Shown here: one piece after another, positions 18,924 through 30,291 of the stretch
How positions within the stretch are numbered: the first letter of the stretch is position 1
Layout of the letters: every line of letters begins with the position of its first letter
Source: Candidatus Levyibacteriota bacterium
Lineage (GTDB): Bacteria > Patescibacteriota > Microgenomatia > Levybacterales > UBA12049
DNA length: 48,732 nt
Reading direction: 5' to 3'
Assembly (NCBI GenBank): GCA_049519175.1
Contig: JBEKQZ010000001.1
Coordinates: 173,311 to 222,042 of the forward strand
Notes under the pieces: model-generated
Databases searched by the model: none
What the model was told of the DNA's origin: nothing
The model's input: only the letters and a program-made list of their open reading frames with translations
Position numbers and translations under genes: made by a program

Positions 18924-19523
18924 ATGCTTAGAGAACAATTCCTTGGGAGAAATCCGTCTCATTTTACGCTAAATAAAGTTGTTGAAGCATTTATAATTTC
19001 GGAAACTTTTTTATGGTCCGCCTGGAATTTTGTCACTCCGATTTTTGCCATTTTTGTCGTTAACGATATTAAAGGAGGAAATATTCAGATTGCGGCGTCG
19101 GCTTTTAGTGTCTGTCTAATTTCCAGAGTCATCTTTGAAATAATCACCGGTCGGTATCTTAATAATAAAACTGATAAAAATAGGTTGCATTTAACTACCT
19201 TAGGGATGGCGATAATGAGCGTTGCCTACATAGGTTTTGCCTTTTCGCATACGATACCGTTACTATTTCTATTTTATGTGCTAATTGGTATTGGTTTTGG
19301 AGTGGCGTCTCCGGCTAAATATTCTCTTTTTACAACCCATATCGATAAAGAAAAATCGTCAACAGAGTGGAGTTTATATGACGCAATTACTCTAATCGGA
19401 ATCGCTTTGGCCACGGCTTTGGGGGGTTTTATCGCCAGTTTCTACGGCTTCCCCTTTCTTTTTATTCTGTCTAGCATAGTGAATCTGTTAGGAATCGTGC
19501 CTTACCTTTCCTATCGCCGTTAA
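18924..19523 (+). CDS. half-size MFS-like membrane protein (6 TM), possibly truncated
   Basis: 199 aa with 5-6 hydrophobic helices. The G-x3-GRYLNNKTDK loop resembles the MFS motif between TM2 and TM3. It ends in a 4-nt convergent overlap with the surface-protein gene. Confidence 0.5.
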   Translation: MLREQFLGRNPSHFTLNKVVEAFIISETFLWSAWNFVTPIFAIFVVNDIKGGNIQIAASAFSVCLISRVIFEIITGRYLNNKTDKNRLHLTTLGMAIMSVAYIGFAFSHTIPLLFLFYVLIGIGFGVASPAKYSLFTTHIDKEKSSTEWSLYDAITLIGIALATALGGFIASFYGFPFLFILSSIVNLLGIVPYLSYRR

Positions 19524-21598
19524 AATAGAAACATCCGAAGAGAAGAAAGTTTATCTTTAAGATCCGTGCTGGAAAGAAGCTCCTGAAGATATTTTCTTTT
19601 TTTAATTCCCCGGACAAAAACGTAAGCAAGTAAAATCATAAGCAAACTGAAAAGATAAGGAGTCTCCTGAGCGTTTTTGGCAGTAACCAGATTTGTCCCG
19701 GCTTTATTATGCGCGCCCAAAACCGTAACGTGCGGTGGTTGAAAGCTACTATAGGCAAAAGTGGCATTACTACTTAAAACATTAAAATTGCTATCGGCTG
19801 TAGCCGAAACGCCGCTATTATCGGGTCCGACATTGCCGGAAGCAATAGCTCTGGCAATATATAATCCACCTGCCACATTTTTAGGTAGTACAATGCCAGT
19901 GGTGACTTTAACGCCTTTTTGCGGTTGGATATCTCCCAGATTAAAATTGGCTGTTCCAATAGTTTGGCCGTTGGAAATTAGCTCAAGGGCAAGATTGGCG
20001 CCGTAAACTGTGCCCGTTCCGGTATTTTTAACTTTAAGAAAGAAAGTAACGGTGTCGCCCGGGTAAACAAAAGCGCCAACATTATTAGTATTTTCCACGT
20101 TCAACTGTCCGCCTTGCTCCTGAGGAGTATTTGAATCAGAGCTTCCCGTATTATCACTAGAAATAGTTGGTGAGACATCAGTATTTTGAATACTCAACGC
20201 CGCAAATTCACTTTGTCCGCCGATGTCGCCGGTCCAGTTGCCGAAAATATTGATAAAACCGAAAAAGCCAAACGAATCGATAAAATTAGTATTGATAAAA
20301 TTCATCAGCGAAATGACGCTAAAGGAATTGCCGGTGGAAATAGACGAATCGCCGCCGCTAATGGAATTGCCGCCGCTTGAGGCAAGCGATGAAACATTAT
20401 TGTCAACCACAACGGTATTATTAATAGTTGTTTGCGAAGAGTCGCTGGCAGTGCTTCCGTTGGGACTAAAATCGTAAAGCGCCAGACTGGCGCCGCCTTC
20501 GGTTGGGTCAAAATTCCCCCAGCCGATAAAATTGCCATTCCAAGTGCCTAAGTCGTTAATATACAAAACTTCGGCGTTGGTGCCTAAAACGTTGGTATTA
20601 ACAACGTTTAAGCTATTGACAGCACTTTGAGCATCTCCGGTAGAAATGGCGGTACTGCCGGTGGCAACAATCGAATTATTACCCGTGTCCGCCGTTGAGC
20701 TAAGATTGTTGGTGACAGCGGCGGTATTACTAGCATTGACGTCTACGCCGCAACCAGCGCAATTGGTCGAAGCATTTAGGTCTGGCAAAATGATATTGCC
20801 GTTTAAGTTGCCGAAGATATTAATGGTCACCAAATGAATTTGCGAATTTACCACCGTAAAATTCACCTGGTTTAGAAGTGACACCGCGCTATAAGCATTG
20901 CCGGTAGTAATGGTAGCACTTTGACCGGACGAATCAATTAAATTATCTCCGGTTAAAGCGGCGGAGGCAACGTCGTTGGTGATATAAGCATAGTTATTCA
21001 CGTTAGTTACGGAAACATTGATAACGGAATCTTCGGGGTGGGTAGAAATGGCGTTGGCGGCAATTGTAAACGGATCGGACAAATCAATACTACCGTCCTG
21101 AGAAACAAAAATGTTAATTGTCTGATTGACGACCGCTGAATTAACAGAATTAGTGTTGACGTCGTTGATAATAGCGATTGACGAAGTGGCGTCTCCGGTG
21201 TCGATTGTAGAACTGGGAGAAGATGGGGAAGTATTATCAGAATCTGATCCCGATGAATCACCGGTTGAATTAGTAAGGGAATTATCGCTTCCAGAAGAAG
21301 TAGCATTCTCGGTCTGCGCGCTGTCGGTTGCGGTTATCGTATTGTCTCCGGTATTGGCGTCTGATTGTAGATTAGAACTAACAGTAGCATTGTTAGAAAT
21401 GTCAACGGTTGGTGTCGGCGTTGGCGTGTCGGTCGGCGTTGGAGCTACAGTACTATCATCAGTAATAACCGGCGTGGGCGTTGGCGTATCGGTCGGCGTA
21501 ACCTCTTGAGCAAAAGATAGCGGCGGATAGATAACGTATAAAAACAGTAATAAAACTGTTAATAAAATTGACAATTGTTTTTTCAGTTTTCCTTTCAT
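19520..21598 (-). CDS. secreted, C-terminally TM-anchored VNTN-repeat surface protein (692 aa)
   Basis: Signal peptide ending LSFAQE, then a PT-rich linker. Four repeats end in TG[DN]A.S....N.VNTN. A CARDB/DUF11-like segment (VYPGDTVTFFLKVKNTGTGTVYGANL) follows. C-terminal TM helix plus a KKRK tail. Confidence 0.85.
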   Translation of the reverse strand: MKGKLKKQLSILLTVLLLFLYVIYPPLSFAQEVTPTDTPTPTPVITDDSTVAPTPTDTPTPTPTVDISNNATVSSNLQSDANTGDNTITATDSAQTENATSSGSDNSLTNSTGDSSGSDSDNTSPSSPSSTIDTGDATSSIAIINDVNTNSVNSAVVNQTINIFVSQDGSIDLSDPFTIAANAISTHPEDSVINVSVTNVNNYAYITNDVASAALTGDNLIDSSGQSATITTGNAYSAVSLLNQVNFTVVNSQIHLVTINIFGNLNGNIILPDLNASTNCAGCGVDVNASNTAAVTNNLSSTADTGNNSIVATGSTAISTGDAQSAVNSLNVVNTNVLGTNAEVLYINDLGTWNGNFIGWGNFDPTEGGASLALYDFSPNGSTASDSSQTTINNTVVVDNNVSSLASSGGNSISGGDSSISTGNSFSVISLMNFINTNFIDSFGFFGFINIFGNWTGDIGGQSEFAALSIQNTDVSPTISSDNTGSSDSNTPQEQGGQLNVENTNNVGAFVYPGDTVTFFLKVKNTGTGTVYGANLALELISNGQTIGTANFNLGDIQPQKGVKVTTGIVLPKNVAGGLYIARAIASGNVGPDNSGVSATADSNFNVLSSNATFAYSSFQPPHVTVLGAHNKAGTNLVTAKNAQETPYLFSLLMILLAYVFVRGIKKRKYLQELLSSTDLKDKLSSLRMFLF

Positions 21599-21643
21599 GC
21601 TTATACTGGATACAGAATATTAGTTACTATTAATAATTCTTCC

Positions 21644-21685
21644 GTCCCGGGGGAGAGTGCCTAAGGCATTCCTCTCCCCTGGGAC
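21644..21685 (-). terminator. long GC-rich hairpin between the two VNTN-repeat genes
   Basis: GTCCCAGGGGAGAG ... CTCTCCCCCGGGAC pairs at 13 of 14 positions, with an inner palindrome TGCCTAAGGCA. There is no clear U-tract, so it may be a terminator, a processing site or a stabiliser. Confidence 0.45.
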
Positions 21686-21701
21686 TAAAAAGAATTTCAG
21701 C

Positions 21702-22133
21702 TTAGAAGAGGCTAACGTTGGTATTAACAACGTTAATTACGCCTGCTCCAGAGCTCGCACTTCCCGTGGTGACCTTATTGGATCCGCCAAAGGTTGCGCT
21801 CGTACCATTGCTTCCTGACGAAGCACTTGAGCTAACATTGTTTACAACACCTGCATTATTGGATGTTTTTCCAAAATTGTTAACGTTGGTGTTAACAACA
21901 TTTAATGTACTCGCATTGGCAGTAGCACTGCCTGTTTTTACAGTGTTGCTACTAAAGAATCCCGATGCGCCGGTGGTGTTGCTTCCGGATGAAGCGTTTG
22001 AGCTAACATTATTAACAACAAACGCGTTGTTAGATGTTCCGTTCTGGGTATGTGCAAAAGCTGCGGTTGCAGAAACTAATAAAAGTCCTGCGGCTGCTCC
22101 TGTCACTATTAATTTTTTGATCATTTTATTCAC
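21702..22133 (-). CDS. small secreted VNTN-repeat protein (143 aa)
   Basis: Signal peptide MNKMIKKLIVTGAAAGLLLVSATAAFA. Two ~50-aa repeats (NNA.VVNNVSS.ASSGSN ... TGSA......NVVNTNV) are paralogous to the repeats of the 692-aa neighbour. Confidence 0.85.
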   Translation of the reverse strand: MNKMIKKLIVTGAAAGLLLVSATAAFAHTQNGTSNNAFVVNNVSSNASSGSNTTGASGFFSSNTVKTGSATANASTLNVVNTNVNNFGKTSNNAGVVNNVSSSASSGSNGTSATFGGSNKVTTGSASSGAGVINVVNTNVSLF

Positions 22134-22171
22134 CTCCTTCCTTTAGAAAATTTCAAGTTATATGTGCGATT

Positions 22172-22201
22172 TAAATAAAAAGGCACCCTCTTCGGGTGCC
22201 T
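22172..22201 (-). terminator. intrinsic terminator of the YezD-like gene
   Basis: Minus-strand AGGCACCC-gaag-AGGGTGCCT hairpin (22181-22201) followed by TTTTTATTT. Confidence 0.7.
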
Positions 22202-22239
22202 CCGTTTGCGGTCGGCATATCCTTTTTCCTTTCTTAAGA

Positions 22240-22476
22240 TTATTCTTCCGCGTGCATTTTATAACTCATTTTCTTAATTGTTTCTTCTTCATGGAACCCG
22301 TTGGTTTTGCGAATACAACGGTGGGTGATTTGTGTAACCGCATAGTCCTGAATCATAATTTCGACACTGCCGAAAGCGTCTACGTCTTTCATCGCATTAA
22401 TCAGCTCCTGCATTAAATGGTCGGAAACTACTTTGGTGGAATGAATATTGCCTTTGCCGTTTGTATGAGCCGTCAT
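22240..22476 (-). CDS. YezD/DUF2292-like small protein
   Basis: 78 aa. FGSVEIMIQDYAVTQITHRCIRK matches the remembered DUF2292 pattern (GsV.l.vqdG.v.qi....k.r). Confidence 0.6.
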   Translation of the reverse strand: MTAHTNGKGNIHSTKVVSDHLMQELINAMKDVDAFGSVEIMIQDYAVTQITHRCIRKTNGFHEEETIKKMSYKMHAEE

Positions 22477-25700: not shown

Positions 25701-26142
25701 CTGGAGATTCGCCAGCGGGGTTGGTCTCTGAATCGGGCGCATAATATGCAGCCCAGACGCCTGTTGTCCAATCAGGTTGTAAGTTGCTTACGAGAATTGT
25801 TGTTGTAACACTGTCAGTAAAATTGGTTGTGGCGACGATATTTCCATCAGAGTCTTTTAATTCCGCTTGGTAATTTGGGCGGTAATTGCCGTCTAATTGA
25901 TAGGCAAAAGCAAAAACTCCGTTTGCGTCAGATGCTACGCTAATATTCTTACTGGTTGGGGGATTGTCGGTTGAAGAAATAGTTAATGTATAAGCAGTAT
26001 TAGGTAAAAGATTGGAACCTGTTATTAAAGCCGTGTCAGTTGGTGCATAATCAGGCTTATCGGTTGTAAGACTTGCGCTCCCTTCCGAAACTACATCTCC
26101 CAAATCAATTGTCGGTGCCGAAACGTTTTTTAGAATTGTCAT
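22720..26142 (-). CDS. very large Ig/FN3-type surface protein with C-terminal TM anchor; apparently 5'-disrupted
   Basis: 1,140 aa. Repeated ~90-aa FN3-like modules (YYWQVRAID.AGNKS.WS). Two chitobiase/hexosaminidase-C-like motifs (YYTTDGSTPT, YYTTDGTTTP). C-terminal LALIILVILAYLIYRKKRK. There is no signal peptide at the annotated Met, and the frame is open upstream (see next feature). Confidence 0.85.
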   Translation of the reverse strand: MTILKNVSAPTIDLGDVVSEGSASLTTDKPDYAPTDTALITGSNLLPNTAYTLTISSTDNPPTSKNISVASDANGVFAFAYQLDGNYRPNYQAELKDSDGNIVATTNFTDSVTTTILVSNLQPDWTTGVWAAYYAPDSETNPAGESPGSTAVYDKREAGIIKAGITPEADGHFRDEGLLAFQVPNVDISSFALQALTYDVENQTGPNPVWVRIRLVGGVQYQFVPMSNPAGWHTVDAAAGQWRLMDDNGDGTGPMMTLAEVATANPGASVDRVYLTLGMGDSYNVSPGVGTVAWVDTVTIGSTTYDFVLAPTPNPTTNPATNVNTTNATVNGTVSTFNADDTSFWLGTTSAGPFTSSTNPVAELPSGWNGIDSLTQPANAAFSHTYSSLTPNTKYYYVAWALVGSTWYPGEIMNFTTSPIILPSVPTNGQPNNSYKTTNDFYFTWDASTGTYPITYEFQSSGSSNVDSNGSLINAWDSITNGNSEQNHLTSPQIHSTGAQDGTYYWQVRAIDTAGNKSVWSSIWKMTIDTTAPPVPTPLSPADNSFRTTATQTLIDWSDVTDPSTPVTYQYESSNSNSLNPDGSFTSPVYVSGALPTSQIPTPGTPEGIYYWQVRAIDAAGNKSAWSTPWKVTVDNTAPTVALVFPTPGPSAINFQAVFSENVNSTEATNPANYFLNNWPGAGGSGNLVGHATISYNSTSYTATITFTTPGWYISPEQQWGVQNIHDLAGNVQQTNPYTEYSTPMVAPVTTDSGTDSNWHTSATITLTCVDNPGGSGCKNTYYTTDGSTPTTSSLSGNSIVLNTDGVYTIKYFSVDNAGNEENVKTAANQVKIDETAPTIGAIPPAGDYNVTSMLVTLISTESGSGLAGIYYTTDGTTTPDKTSSTLYTGPITVDHDMTIKAIAYDNVGNVSNVLSAIYGVLPIISSEQITLAGDNSLTITWTTNFPTTSKVVYDTFSHPDPLDLTTGPNYGYTYSTGTLDTSPEVINHSVTITGVTVNQTYYYRAISNGSPEAISDETPFATYYTFGLPGDGLSDGASTGNGGGAPSPSLTAGVLGAATSLAYTGGTGGEVLGAGTQPEVLGTATKSAEPTPSVSPTGTKQTLVSNSMNWTLGYVSLALIILVILAYLIYRKKRKNTKA

Positions 26143-26514
26143 GCTAAGTTGTTCGTTGCCGGTTGTGATGTCGATTGGGGTGGCAGACGCAGTTGCGCCG
26201 GTTGGCGTCGGAGAGGTAGTGGGAGTTGGAGTTACAGTTGGCGAATTATTTACCGGGGGAGATAAATTGTCGGTTGACGTTGGTGTTGCAGTTGCCGTGT
26301 CATCAACTGCTGGTGTTGGGGTTGGTTCACTCGTTACTTCCGGTGAGGGGATATCGGTTGGAGTTGGTGTTATAGTGTCGGTTGGTGTTGGTGTTACAGT
26401 TTGATCAGGAGTTGGAGTTTCGGTTACGGATGGCGTTGGGGTAGCAGTCGCTTCGGGAAATCCTGATATGGTTCTAAAGACTATTGAAGCCGCTGGATAT
26501 GCGACATCTCCGAC
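26143..26514 (-). pseudogene. start-less in-frame 5' extension of the surface-protein ORF (PT-rich linker)
   Basis: Hand translation shows 124 sense codons contiguous with the 22720..26142 frame and no ATG/GTG/TTG: ...FPEATATPTPSVTETPTPDQTVTPTPTDTITPTPTDIPSPEVTSEPTPTPAVDD... The TAA at 26515-26517 closes the frame. Confidence 0.7.
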
Positions 26515-26575
26515 TTATGTTCAGAATGTCGAGGCAACACCAGAATTTCAACAAAATCTAGGAGGTAATCAATAA
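26468..26575 (+). pseudogene. C-terminal remnant of an N-acetylglucosaminidase-type cell-wall hydrolase
   Basis: MVLKTIEAAGYATSPTYVQNVEATPEFQQNLGGNQ*. The AGYATSPTY segment resembles the conserved C-terminal helix (AGYATDP.Y) of glucosaminidase/FlgJ-type domains. No upstream coding sequence exists (stop at 26402-26404 in that frame). Its stop overlaps the next ATG (TAATG). Confidence 0.45.
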
Positions 26576-27444
26576 TGCAACCTACAACTACTTCAACGTC
26601 AACTCAAACGATAAGCCCTAACTGGGGTAATCCAGATATTGTGGCTAAATTTAGAGCCGCTGCTATGCAGACTGGTGGGATTAGTCCTGAAAGATTGGAC
26701 CAATATATCCAATTTCAACAACAACAATATCAGCAACAAAATCAAAATACTATTACTGCCGTACAAGGACAAAATCAGGGAGGAGCTATTACACCTAATC
26801 AGGCTAGTACTAACCCTCAAGGAGCTTTAAATTTTCTAAATTCAGGTGGAACTCTTTTGAAAACTGGTCCCGATGCTCAAGCTCAGATAATTAATGATTC
26901 AAAAAACCTCTTCCAGAAAAATGTGGGGACAAATGGTTATGTAAGTCCTCAATTATATAACTCTCAAAAAGCAGATTATGTGGCTGCTGAGGGGAATGCT
27001 GCTAATTTTGATACTGCATTCCAAGATAACTATGTGAATCCCGATAATGTCTTATATGATACTCCAGGAAATAAAACAATCCGAGGAGCTTTGCCTATTG
27101 TAAAAAATGTCCTCGACTCATATCATAATTTAAGTATAACAGGTCCAATAGTACAAGATCTAGAAAACATACCAGTTGTAGGGAAATATATAGCGAATAG
27201 CAAACTCCTAGCGGCTCAATCCGCACATGATGCTTTTTTAAGCGGGCAGGCGTTAAAAATTAAATCATTAGTTCAACAGGGAGCTTCCCAGGGTTTTAGA
27301 AATATGGCTGTCTTGGACAACATCACCTCTATGCTTCCTTCAGCGGAAGACAGTAGTGATCTAGCAAATCAAAAAATGGATAAATTAAATACTTATATGG
27401 AAACCAATATGGGAATTGGTTTAAAAACTTTATATGGCAAATAG
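26575..27444 (+). CDS. hypothetical Q/N-rich protein (289 aa)
   Basis: Track ORF. A strong GGAGG SD lies 9 nt upstream, which is unusual for this window. No motifs recognised. Confidence 0.75.
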   Translation: MQPTTTSTSTQTISPNWGNPDIVAKFRAAAMQTGGISPERLDQYIQFQQQQYQQQNQNTITAVQGQNQGGAITPNQASTNPQGALNFLNSGGTLLKTGPDAQAQIINDSKNLFQKNVGTNGYVSPQLYNSQKADYVAAEGNAANFDTAFQDNYVNPDNVLYDTPGNKTIRGALPIVKNVLDSYHNLSITGPIVQDLENIPVVGKYIANSKLLAAQSAHDAFLSGQALKIKSLVQQGASQGFRNMAVLDNITSMLPSAEDSSDLANQKMDKLNTYMETNMGIGLKTLYGK

Positions 27445-28498
27445 TACTAATTGGGATCAAGAATTATATGGGAATTCAAGCAACCCGACAGGACAATCCT
27501 CCAGTGGTGGAGGGTTTTTAAGTAGCATTCTAAATGCTGTGGCAGGTCCTGTAATGAATGCGATTAAGAATCAACAAACTCAAGTCTCACAGTTACCAAA
27601 TGCACAAGGCAATCTACCTCAAGCTGTATCAAACGCAGCTAGTGCCACTGGGGATTTATTTAAAAATACTTTAGGTAATCCTCAAGTAGATGAATACGCT
27701 GGAGCTCTTGCTGCGGCACCAGCGATAGGGCCAGCAGCTGTAGGAGCTTTAGGACCAGTATTAGGTGGTGCAGCTACGGGTGGAGTGGCTGGCGAATTGG
27801 GAGGTATGTCTTCTGGACAATCTCCCGTAGGAGCTTTACCGATGGCAGCCGGAGGAGCTGTGACGGGTGGGGCGTTAGGTGCAGTTTCTAAGGTTTTACC
27901 TTTTCTAACCCAAAGTACAATTAATAATAAATATTCCCAAGTAATGCAAGATGCTGCCAGTGCAGGTAAAACAGCTAATTGGGAAAGCGATATTCAGAAA
28001 CCTATTTTGAATGATTTAGAAAAGAACTATAAATATGATCCTCGATTCGTAAAAGAAGTCAAAGGAGTATTAAATTCCCGAACTCCGGCTGCAACTATGG
28101 TAGAAACTCCTTATTCTGGACAAGCAAGCGCTGGTGAAACTGTCGAAACTCCCCAATTACAGGGAGCAGAACTTACTCCTCAAGATTTACATACTTTTAG
28201 AATGAGTTTAGACAATTCAATCCCACAAAACGCTTGGGGGAATCCAAATGTGAGGGATTTAGGGATTAAAGCTAATCAATATGTGAGGGGACAAGTTAGT
28301 GCAACCTTACATAGTTTAGTTCCTGAAACTAAGAATTTGGATAAAGTTAATAGTCTATATTATAATCCTTTCTTTAAAGGAATAAATCTAGGAGGACTTA
28401 ACTTAAAATATCCAGCAAGTATGACTGGTTTTCCTTCAGCAGCAGCTAATGTAATAGGGGGAGATTTATTATTGAAAAAGATAGGAGTCTTACGTTAG
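27434..28498 (+). CDS. hypothetical protein (354 aa) with a Gly/Ala-rich hydrophobic segment
   Basis: Track ORF overlapping the previous gene by 11 nt. The central AAAPAIGPAAVGALGPVLGGAATGGVAGELGG...AAGGAVTGGALGAV looks like a glycine zipper. Confidence 0.75.
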   Translation: MANSTNWDQELYGNSSNPTGQSSSGGGFLSSILNAVAGPVMNAIKNQQTQVSQLPNAQGNLPQAVSNAASATGDLFKNTLGNPQVDEYAGALAAAPAIGPAAVGALGPVLGGAATGGVAGELGGMSSGQSPVGALPMAAGGAVTGGALGAVSKVLPFLTQSTINNKYSQVMQDAASAGKTANWESDIQKPILNDLEKNYKYDPRFVKEVKGVLNSRTPAATMVETPYSGQASAGETVETPQLQGAELTPQDLHTFRMSLDNSIPQNAWGNPNVRDLGIKANQYVRGQVSATLHSLVPETKNLDKVNSLYYNPFFKGINLGGLNLKYPASMTGFPSAAANVIGGDLLLKKIGVLR

Positions 28499-28645
28499 CG
28501 CAGGTTTTTCGGGGCGTAGAGATAGAGAGACTATCATAAGAATTATAGAAAACAAACCAAGTAATGTACCGACTGGGGGATAAGAAATAAAAACTATGGC
28601 ACAAATAAAGAAAAATACAGCAAGAATATTCAATAAAGTTTTCAT
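28490..28645 (-). CDS. candidate 51-aa two-TM membrane peptide (holin-sized)
   Basis: Too short for the ORF track. Hand translation: MKTLLNILAVFFFICAIVFISYPPVGTLLGLFSIILMIVSLSLRPEKPALT*. TATAAT (28652-28657, minus) lies 6 nt before the ATG. Preferred over the overlapping track ORF 28446..28649, which looks non-protein-like. Confidence 0.45.
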   Translation of the reverse strand: MKTLLNILAVFFFICAIVFISYPPVGTLLGLFSIILMIVSLSLRPEKPALT

Positions 28646-28664
28646 ACATACATTATAGCATATT

Positions 28665-28787
28665 ATGGCAAAGATAGATAAATTTGAAGGGGAAACGTCA
28701 CAATCTTTAACAGATATTCGTTGTGATATTAAAGAAATTAAAGACTTTATGAGCTCTCAAGATAGAAGATTATCTTCTTGGGCATAA
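28665..28787 (+). CDS. candidate 40-aa ORF
   Basis: MAKIDKFEGETSQSLTDIRCDIKEIKDFMSSQDRRLSSWA*, with TATAGC 5 nt upstream. Weak evidence. Confidence 0.25.
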   Translation: MAKIDKFEGETSQSLTDIRCDIKEIKDFMSSQDRRLSSWA

Positions 28788-28888
28788 GCTTTTTGGGGTA
28801 AAATAACTAAGTAAGGAGAAAACGATTGAGCGATTATCGCAACAAGAGCAATTGCTGTCAGGATTTTCTTACCTAATGCCCATTTCAT
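28757..28888 (-). pseudogene. orphan signal-peptide ORF (displaced 5' end of the surface-protein gene?)
   Basis: MKWALGKKILTAIALVAIIAQSFSPYLVILPQKAYAQEDNLLS*. Promoter: TTGCAT (28936-28941, minus), 17-nt spacer, TATTAT (28913-28918, minus). The AYAQE end mirrors SFAQE of the 692-aa paralog. Confidence 0.5.
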
Positions 28889-29022
28889 CTTTTATTCAGT
28901 GAATCTTCAGCGATAATAACACTGTATATTTTAAAATGCAATGTCCTATAGCATAATGATATTAAACAACGGATTCTTCTATATAATAATAGCAGCGGCA
29001 AGCTCATTTCGGACCTTGAATA

Positions 29023-30291
29023 CTAGAGGAAATTGAAGATGTTGGGAAAGAAAAGTGAGAGCATATAGAAAGTTGACGCGGCCGCAATTGCCACCAAAGT
29101 AATGATCACGACGATATTAACCAATTTGTTATTAGCGTATTCTCCCAGCAGTTTTTTGTCATTGGAAAGAATAAACAGGAAAATAAAGACCGGGATAAGC
29201 AGCACCGCGTTAATTGCCTGAGTAACGACCAAGATGGTTATTAACGGTAAGAAAGGTAACATAACAATGGTTCCGCCGAGAATCAAAAGTAATAAAAATA
29301 TACCATAGAATTGGGGAGCTTCTTTGTATTTAAAGTTTAATCCCGACTCCATGCCAAACGCTTCGGTCATAACATAGGCTGTAGTCACCGGAACAATGGC
29401 CGCGCCAAAAAGCGAAGCGTTTAAAAAACCAAAAGCAAAAAGACCGGCCGCAAATTCTCCGGCTAAAGGTTTTAAAGCCAGGGCGGCCTGAGCCGCGTCG
29501 GTAATCCTAATACCTTTAGTAAACAGCGTGGCGGCGCAAGCAACGATGATAAAAAAGGAAATAAAATTGGTGAAAAAGCTGCCAACAAAAACGTCGCCTC
29601 TTTCGATTTTTAAGTCCTCTTTAGACAGCTTTTTATCCACAATATAGTCTTGGATAAAGAATTGTCCCCAAGGAGTAATGGTGGTGCCGATCACTGCCAT
29701 CAGCATTAAAACGTAAGCCCCGCTTAAGTTAATTCCGGAAGGAATGACCAAACTTTTCAGAGCCGAACCAAAATCCGGGTGAGCCAGTATCGCCGAGATG
29801 ATATAGCAAAGGTAGAAAACAGACATTAAAAGAAATAGCCGTTCAAGTTTTTTAAAGTTGCCTTTGGTGACGAATAAGAAGACGAAAGTAATGGCTGCCG
29901 GAACGGCAATGAATTTTGAAATATGAAAAATACTTAAAGCTGCCGCCACTCCGGCAAACTCCGCCGAAATAGTGCCGATGTTTGAGATAAAAAGACAAAT
30001 CATGACAAAAGTGGTCCAGCGGATACCAAACTTTTCCCTAATTAATGAGGCCAGGCCTTTGCCGGTCACTAGTCCCATTCTGGCGCCGATTTCTTGAGTG
30101 ATGGCTAAGGCGAAGGTGGTTAAAAGTAAAACCCATAACAGCGAATGTCCAAAATTTGCTCCCGCCACGGAATAAGTAGTGATGCCACCGGCGTCGTTGT
30201 CGGCGTTGCCCGCAATAATCCCCGGTCCGATAATCGCCAGGATCGGAATTAAAAATAAAAGCCTTCTTCTTAGCGGTTTAAATAATTTCAT
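29023..30291 (-). CDS. NRAMP/SLC11-related divalent-cation transporter with non-canonical (Mg-type) binding-site residues
   Basis: 422 aa with about 11 TM helices. TM1 GPGIIAGNADNDAGGITTYSVAG aligns to the canonical GPG....DPGN.....AG, so DPGN becomes DAGG. TM6 AVIGTTITPWG aligns to the canonical A.IG..VMPHN, so Met becomes Thr and His becomes Trp. Confidence 0.8.
   Translation of the reverse strand: MKLFKPLRRRLLFLIPILAIIGPGIIAGNADNDAGGITTYSVAGANFGHSLLWVLLLTTFALAITQEIGARMGLVTGKGLASLIREKFGIRWTTFVMICLFISNIGTISAEFAGVAAALSIFHISKFIAVPAAITFVFLFVTKGNFKKLERLFLLMSVFYLCYIISAILAHPDFGSALKSLVIPSGINLSGAYVLMLMAVIGTTITPWGQFFIQDYIVDKKLSKEDLKIERGDVFVGSFFTNFISFFIIVACAATLFTKGIRITDAAQAALALKPLAGEFAAGLFAFGFLNASLFGAAIVPVTTAYVMTEAFGMESGLNFKYKEAPQFYGIFLLLLILGGTIVMLPFLPLITILVVTQAINAVLLIPVFIFLFILSNDKKLLGEYANNKLVNIVVIITLVAIAAASTFYMLSLFFPNIFNFL

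Follow-up and report, generated by a model that had tools for sequence, protein, structure and literature searches.

A fragment of tailed-phage DNA splits a surface-protein gene from its signal peptide in a Patescibacteria genome

The stretch of DNA analysed here, hereafter the window, comprises 48,732 nt of contig JBEKQZ010000001.1 from a Candidatus Levyibacteriota bacterium. On its minus strand lies a gene for a giant surface protein that is split into two pieces by a fragment of phage DNA (Table 1). The upstream piece runs into a 43-codon open reading frame (ORF), whose product MKWALGKKILTAIALVAIIAQSFSPYLVILPQKAYAQEDNLLS is, as the original prediction had it, essentially a signal peptide. 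Its n-region (MKWALGKK) is basic, its core (ILTAIALVAIIA) is hydrophobic with a Kyte-Doolittle mean of up to 3.1, and an AYA-QE site is present. The promoter-like sequence in front of it is present as predicted, and its hexamers and spacing are also kept in a relative, contig L005; the description of it as good does not hold for the -35 hexamer TTGCAT, which is weak (3/6), and the promoter is therefore unlisted by a consensus scan. The downstream piece contains the 1,140-codon ORF of the body, with Pfam matches to CHB_HEX_C_1 (2.7e-19), Fn3_assoc (1e-18) and Big_13 (5.9e-8). Its frame does stay open for a further 124 codons upstream, up to a stop at 26515-26517, with no ATG, GTG or TTG among them. 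The linker rich in proline and threonine (PT-rich) that had been recognised in this region is there as well, at about 104 codons instead of the 103 first counted. Removing 26452-28774 in silico, as had been proposed, indeed yields a single ORF of 1,281 codons.

Table 1. Features of the interrupted surface-protein locus, in window coordinates
Feature	Position	Strand	Remarks
Promoter-like TTGCAT-17-TATTAT	28913-28941	(-)	Regular-expression match 5' of the surface-protein gene; putative function
Host-derived 5' fragment of surface-protein gene	28768-28888	(-)	40 codons + 1 nt: signal peptide, AYA-QE site, Asp-Asn
43-codon ORF created by the insertion	28757-28888	(-)	Last 3 codons (LLS) and stop derived from the insert
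Orphaned PT-rich linker of surface-protein gene	26143-26453	(-)	No start codon
Surface-protein body, 1,140 codons	22720-26142	(-)	Ig-like, Fn3-associated and CHB_HEX_C domains, then C-terminal hydrophobic segment and basic tail
Inserted phage-genome fragment	26456-28767; left boundary ambiguous within 26453-26457	antisense to host gene	About 2.31 kb
3' end of phage peptidoglycan-hydrolase (glucosaminidase) gene	26456-26575	(+)	About 39 codons and stop, truncated at the left junction
Intact phage gene, 289 aa	26575-27444	(+)	All-helical, function unknown; homologues in L008, L007, L006
Intact phage gene, 354 aa	27434-28498	(+)	Gly/Ala-rich, function unknown; weak similarity to L007 gene at same position, E 4e-5
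Small ORF, 51 aa	28490-28645	(-)	Hydrophobic, presumably membrane protein; position only
First 34 codons of ORF running into the right junction	28665-28767	(+)	Possibly truncated phage gene

The surface-protein gene was formerly contiguous, because two syntenic contigs carry it uninterrupted. A search with the repaired N-terminus found protein P0001 on L005, with 73% identity over 96% of that N-terminus; its own N-terminus reads MKWALGKKILTSIALVAIIAQSFSPYLVFSQKAYAQEDNQGNVTPTATDTPTP...EQISMTILKNVSAPT, and its start is also quoted as MKWALGKKILTSIALVAIIAQSFSPYLVFSQKAYAQEDNQGNVTPTATDTPTP...TGNEQISMTILKNVSAPTIDL. The contig shares with the window the order MarR, RND-like gene, Lon, MgtE and Nramp, then the surface-protein gene, and blastn aligns the two in two blocks. 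L005 7375-10118 matches window 31516-28768 (92.5% identity, 2,751 nt), and L005 10132-10815 matches window 26457-25775 (90.8% identity, 684 nt, linker included). The second contig, L009, belongs to a Patescibacteria metagenome-assembled genome from the GTDB collection. Here Lon, MgtE and Nramp are followed directly by an intact ORF of 1,693 codons that includes signal peptide and PT linker, an empty site as in L005. In both contigs, signal peptide, linker and body lie in one reading frame at the syntenic site, which is the contiguous arrangement in relatives that the original prediction had proposed to look for.

Further homologues (P0013, P0017, P0019 and P0026) have the same N-terminal layout in common. 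An alignment with five homologues, together with the Pfam domains of the body, places the window copy in a Patescibacteria family of PT-linker surface proteins, a fit that holds only with the insert removed in silico. Members start with a signal peptide ending in A-x-A-QE and a PT-rich linker, have the conserved module ...TGNEQLSMTILKNVSAPTIDL...TDKPDYAPTDTALITG... in common and vary in the body, which is Ig-like or of another extracellular type. In the protein alignment the supposed start methionine of MTILKN (26142) is internal in all homologues and is a phenylalanine in P0026, and the 124 open codons upstream of it are homologous to the linker of the orthologues. No orthologue starts at MTILKN, and the 43-aa ORF has no full-length homologue unrelated to the surface protein, two outcomes that would have spoken against the original prediction. 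Among metagenome contigs no uninterrupted allele was found when the repaired junction, with a gap of 0-30 nt, served as the query.

The insert itself is a fragment from the interior of a tailed-phage genome. It is collinear with the phage contigs L006, L007 and L008 and with the IMG/VR contig L011 (IMGVR_UViG_3300044811_000028, 30 kb), which shows synteny to L006 and came to light only by way of the adaptor protein of the latter. The order hydrolase, 289-like gene, 354-like gene and small reverse-strand ORF is common to the insert and L006. This 17.9-kb contig encodes an SU10_adaptor (1e-9), a tail-protein PHROG (3.6e-5), a CHAP domain (1e-6) and a tyrosine integrase (4.7e-42), the last about 2.2 kb beyond the region that matches the right end of the insert. 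In L011, one 584-aa ORF takes the place of the separate 289- and 354-like genes and is followed by a 59-aa reverse-strand hydrophobic ORF and a lysis cassette. In the same region (L011:13937-16897) the contig has an HNH-endonuclease-like ORF (182 aa) between its M23 hydrolase gene and the 584-aa ORF. IMG/VR contained no exact copy of a 26-mer taken from the insert, and the window contains no phage-like sequence besides the insert.

At its left end the insert begins within a phage gene. The encoded peptide is 75% identical to residues 169-208 of the 212-aa glucosaminidase of L008 (tblastn, E 6e-17) and matches positions 91-116 of the 123 positions of Pfam PF01832 (E 0.059), which puts the cut at about residue 176 of the hydrolase. 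The type of hydrolase differs among the related contigs, being a glucosaminidase in L008 and a peptidase M23 in L006, L007 and L011. Since the products of L008:366-1004 and L006:9123-9767 share their N-terminal ~55 aa (44% identity, E 8e-6) across two catalytic types, with differing catalytic domains behind them, the comparison suggests a virion-associated enzyme whose catalytic domains may be exchanged, a domain swap at a single gene position.

The 289-aa protein, encoded next, has homologues P0048 in L008 (58% identity), P0049 in L007 (47%) and P0050 in L006 (36%), each encoded directly after a peptidoglycan-hydrolase gene, and is 26% identical to the N-terminal half of the 584-aa ORF of L011 (E 1e-12). 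Its AlphaFold2 model is all-helical with a pLDDT of 70.5 and has no significant match in BFVD or the PDB; a profile of its family found no match in IMG/VR or in JGI metagenome contigs. For the 354-aa protein, a full HMMER scan of 1.84 billion representatives returned 21 relatives, none with a PHROG or PDB annotation. A word-indexed search with this protein was uninformative, being swamped by low-complexity words to the point of missing the self-match too. Neither protein had a tblastn match in 50,697 GenBank phage records. At the place and strand of the 51-aa ORF, L006 and L011 have ORFs of 65 and 59 aa, respectively, with no detectable sequence similarity to it. The place that corresponds to the 34-codon ORF is occupied in L006 by a 74-aa XhlA-like gene (phrog_1193, E 0.0011). 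Sequence comparison detected no homologue of the 34-codon ORF, this gene included, and the idea that it is XhlA-like, which the comparison does not support, stands as a positional guess. Two other readings of the insert were rejected. An Rfam search of 25900-29200 on both strands gave no match at E up to 1, and a group I or II intron or other structured RNA was discarded on that ground; a defence system was discarded as no defence-system protein was found.

Judged by the empty site in L005, the junctions lie a few bases away from those of the original prediction, whose claim that an insertion separates the gene from its signal peptide is otherwise borne out by the orthologues, contiguous at this very locus. 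The right junction is at 28767/28768, where host homology resumes at GATTATC (28768, plus strand), 6 nt deeper inside the element than the predicted 28774; the Asp-Asn codons after AQE are host sequence. On the left side host homology ends at 26453, or extends to 26457 if a 1-nt gap relative to L005 is allowed. DNA homology to the hydrolase gene of L008 begins at 26456, and host and phage homologies may overlap here by 2 nt, possibly by up to 5 nt. Thirteen nucleotides of L005, AAGGCAACGTAAC, are missing from the window, and the site is also variable among orthologues, for example in L009; these bases may have been lost at the insertion, or the difference may be lineage-specific. The host has lost at most 13-18 nt at the site and the flanks are otherwise intact.

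None of the usual marks of a mobile element accompany these junctions. A repeat search and the junction alignments showed the true junctions to be free of target duplication and of repeats, whether terminal, direct or inverted, and domain scans found no integrase, transposase or recombinase in the insert or adjoining it. The original prediction had attached meaning to a short string found at both of its junctions. This string, CTTC(N0-2)GGG, occurs 15 times in the window on both strands and is absent from the true right junction, 6 nt away, and we rejected it as a junction repeat, its recurrence being due to chance.

Taken together, we consider it highly probable that the gene was split by the capture of a phage DNA fragment through illegitimate recombination, which would have left a null allele. 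The type of recombination is proposed because the left end of the insert, and probably also the right one, lies inside a phage gene, and because recombinase, attachment site, target duplication and terminal or inverted repeats are all absent. The left end falls at an arbitrary point in a donor gene, the hydrolase; at the right end an ORF without a detected homologue runs into the junction and may be truncated there. The ancestral gene would have had roughly 1,290 codons and encoded a secreted, C-terminally anchored surface protein of this Patescibacteria bacterium, a member of the Candidate Phyla Radiation (CPR). A chromosomal break may then have occurred between codon 40 and the PT linker, into which a linear 2.31-kb piece from the interior of a tailed-phage genome could have been joined by end-joining or by a microhomology-mediated template switch, with a presumed loss of no more than 13-18 nt from the host. 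A failed infection or DNA uptake may have supplied the fragment. Chayot et al. (2010) reportedly described how exogenous DNA is captured by end-joining in Escherichia coli. Some points weigh against this explanation: the 1-nt gap relative to L005 at the left junction leaves the ancestral site uncertain, the searches returned nothing closely related to the donor phage, with 58% amino-acid identity as the highest value, and the truncation of a gene at the right end is argued from position only.

A different history would have the phage integrate site-specifically into the gene as a whole and lose most of its genome afterwards. The tyrosine integrase of L006 makes a temperate lifestyle of this phage family probable, and decay of prophages is common. 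Such decay, however, should keep one attachment junction or remove host flank, and here the flanks are intact to within 13-18 nt. A phage structural gene, moreover, is cut by the left end, and another gene probably by the right one. The integrase of L006 is located well past the match to the right end of the insert, neither the insert nor its flanks encode an integrase, and no attL/attR repeats or other direct repeats are found at the ends. A prophage remnant is, on this evidence, an unlikely source of the insert.

Another possibility is a regulated intervening element, comparable to skin in sigK, the nifD element or active lysogeny, whose excision would restore the gene and produce phase variation. 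That the deletion restores one open frame, that all frames are intact and that the allele is stable across samples would agree with it. Against it, the element carries no recombinase and has none next to it, its true junctions show neither direct nor inverted repeats, the CTTC..GGG motif is a chance string 6 nt from the right junction, and host bases are apparently missing from the site. We regard programmed excision as very improbable here.

The insertion is real and not a chimera of assembly, because several other samples yielded assemblies with the same junctions at 100% identity. ENA ERZ27250144 k141_64433 (580 kb) and a 20-kb Logan contig from SRR7028199 match the window without a difference. 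Five other assemblies (SRR7028199, JGI 3300017931, JGI 3300038423, ENA ERZ27250043 and Logan SRR7028008) contain the left junction at 100% identity, and SRR7028199 and JGI 3300039412 contain the right one at 100% DNA identity. The 43-aa product, diagnostic of the insertion, is called in exactly this form on 8 contigs, which come from several samples and include ENA ERZ27249792 and JGI 3300009760. Some of these assemblies may share reads, and several assemblers and samples agree. A false joining of phage and host contigs would be conceivable in that the data are metagenomic and the support comes from assemblies, but host sequence continues correctly on both sides and no repeat is shared by the junctions, so that this explanation, which the original prediction had asked to exclude, is effectively refuted. 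The orthologues also refute the view, in line with the annotation by gene callers, that there are two genuine genes here, one for a small secreted peptide and one for a cytoplasmic protein of 1,140 aa with MTILKN as its start: in all homologues signal peptide, linker and body form one frame, the MTILKN methionine and the codons before it correspond to internal sequence, and the body consists of extracellular-type domains with a C-terminal anchor. An insertion sequence or transposon was rejected for want of a transposase, terminal inverted repeats and a target-site duplication.

In its present form the promoter and signal peptide would direct the synthesis of a 43-aa peptide only, and the linker and body would be left behind. 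As these have neither a start codon nor an export signal, the allele is most likely null, judged from the sequence. With L009 as outgroup and 425 codons aligned, the window branch collected 26 synonymous changes and 8 nonsynonymous ones, against 34 and 23 on the L005 branch, a crude tally of small counts made without a significance test. By this count there seems to be no sign of relaxed constraint on the window branch. Because nonsynonymous changes are few and none of the four frames (the signal-peptide piece, the body and the 289- and 354-aa genes) has been disrupted so far, the data suggest that the insertion may be recent; they also leave room for continued selection on the body.

Several other features of the gene and its surroundings deserve mention. 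The C-terminus of the window surface protein consists of a hydrophobic segment and a KKRK tail, with no obvious LPXTG motif. Contigs L014, L016 and L017, from different assemblies, all begin exactly at window 25333, within the body, which suggests a repeat boundary or strain variation at this point; the domain located there recurs in many other proteins at ~70% identity. Antisense to the PT linker, public gene calls contain a Val/Gly-rich 78-aa ORF (26168-26404, (+)), which is almost certainly spurious, valine and glycine being the expected reverse complement of proline and threonine codons.

Immediately downstream of the surface-protein gene, L005 (13764-14934) and L009 (10989-12468) have a sortase gene, where the window has genes for proteins of 78, 143 and 692 aa (19520-22476). 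The 143- and 692-aa proteins are secreted (window 19520-22133, (-)) and share a repeated motif, TG[DN]A.S...N.[VI]NTN, of which SLNVVNTNV is an example; Pfam offers no match to it, and it may represent an uncharacterised repeat family. The 692-aa neighbour begins with ...LSFAQE-VTPTDTPTPTP, as the original prediction had read it. Downstream, L005 also contains a block resembling a mobile element (L005:15940-20717) with AbiEii, DUF6922, a 538-aa serine recombinase, an Omega repressor and many small ORFs, which is absent from the window. Within the surface-protein gene of L005, a 1-nt insertion outside any homopolymer (GTC-ACA to GTCTACA, L005:11380-11400, corresponding to about window 25250) splits the orthologue into ORFs of 468 and 744 aa; the gene may have suffered a second lesion independently there, or the assembly may contain a sequencing error.

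One could go further and suppose that the insertion was a receptor knock-out favoured by selection. The captured phage would adsorb to the giant surface protein, its DNA would have been fragmented in a failed infection, and one piece would have been joined into a break in the very gene that encodes the receptor, after which the null allele would have spread. This reading takes the occurrence of the allele at 100% identity in many samples as the sign of that spread. The frameshift in L005 is compatible with it, as it would fit recurrent selection against the surface protein, and it could also be a sequencing error. We think it unlikely that the insertion came about in this way. If it did, the locus would name both the host and the receptor for an uncultivated family of CPR phages, and it would record end-joining capture of phage DNA in a lineage that is mostly without CRISPR.

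For annotation, the locus shows that a single disrupted gene accounts, as pieces or artefacts, for three public gene calls (the 1,140-aa "protein", the 43-aa ORF and the antisense 78-aa ORF), and that the true protein family is defined by signal peptide, PT linker and conserved N-terminal module. The fragment also documents physically that a Patescibacteria cell took in DNA of a phage family about which little is known, and it links the members of this family (L006, L007, L008 and IMGVR_UViG_3300044811_000028) to a likely host. Links between phages and hosts are scarce for Patescibacteria because CRISPR is rare in CPR bacteria, and what kinds of phages infect them is still an open question (PMC6509639).

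Because the defining features of prophages, insertion sequences, introns and excisable elements were each looked for and found missing, we class the insert with none of them, even if it resembles several in part. Insertion-sequence knock-outs of surface or receptor genes likewise separate promoter and signal peptide from the body, and differ in having a transposase, terminal inverted repeats and a target-site duplication. Gene-interrupting excisable elements such as skin in sigK, the nifD element and the Listeria comK prophage with its 'active lysogeny' encode their own recombinase and are bounded by repeats. The present insert shares with them that phage-derived DNA splits a coding sequence and that its removal restores the frame, but it has neither recombinase nor bounding repeats. 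As in cryptic prophages and their remnants, phage genes are stranded in a chromosome without the ability to excise or replicate. In contrast to these, the insert measures only 2.3 kb, has no attachment site or integrase, cuts phage genes at its left end and probably at both, and leaves the flanks almost untouched.

The closest counterparts are found among small variable segments. Loci with such segments, free of mobility genes, are particularly abundant in genes for membrane proteins, and most have been attributed to illegitimate recombination (Touzain et al. 2010, PMC2884548). The insertion described here resembles them in its kilobase scale, in the lack of mobility genes, repeats and target duplication, and in its location in a gene for an envelope protein. 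It differs in that its donor is recognisable, the insert being an internal piece of a phage genome, and in that the host is a CPR bacterium. The locus belongs to a known kind, that of insertional pseudogenes or small variable segments, and is no new kind of system; it provides a clean natural case of foreign DNA joined into a chromosome without mobility machinery.

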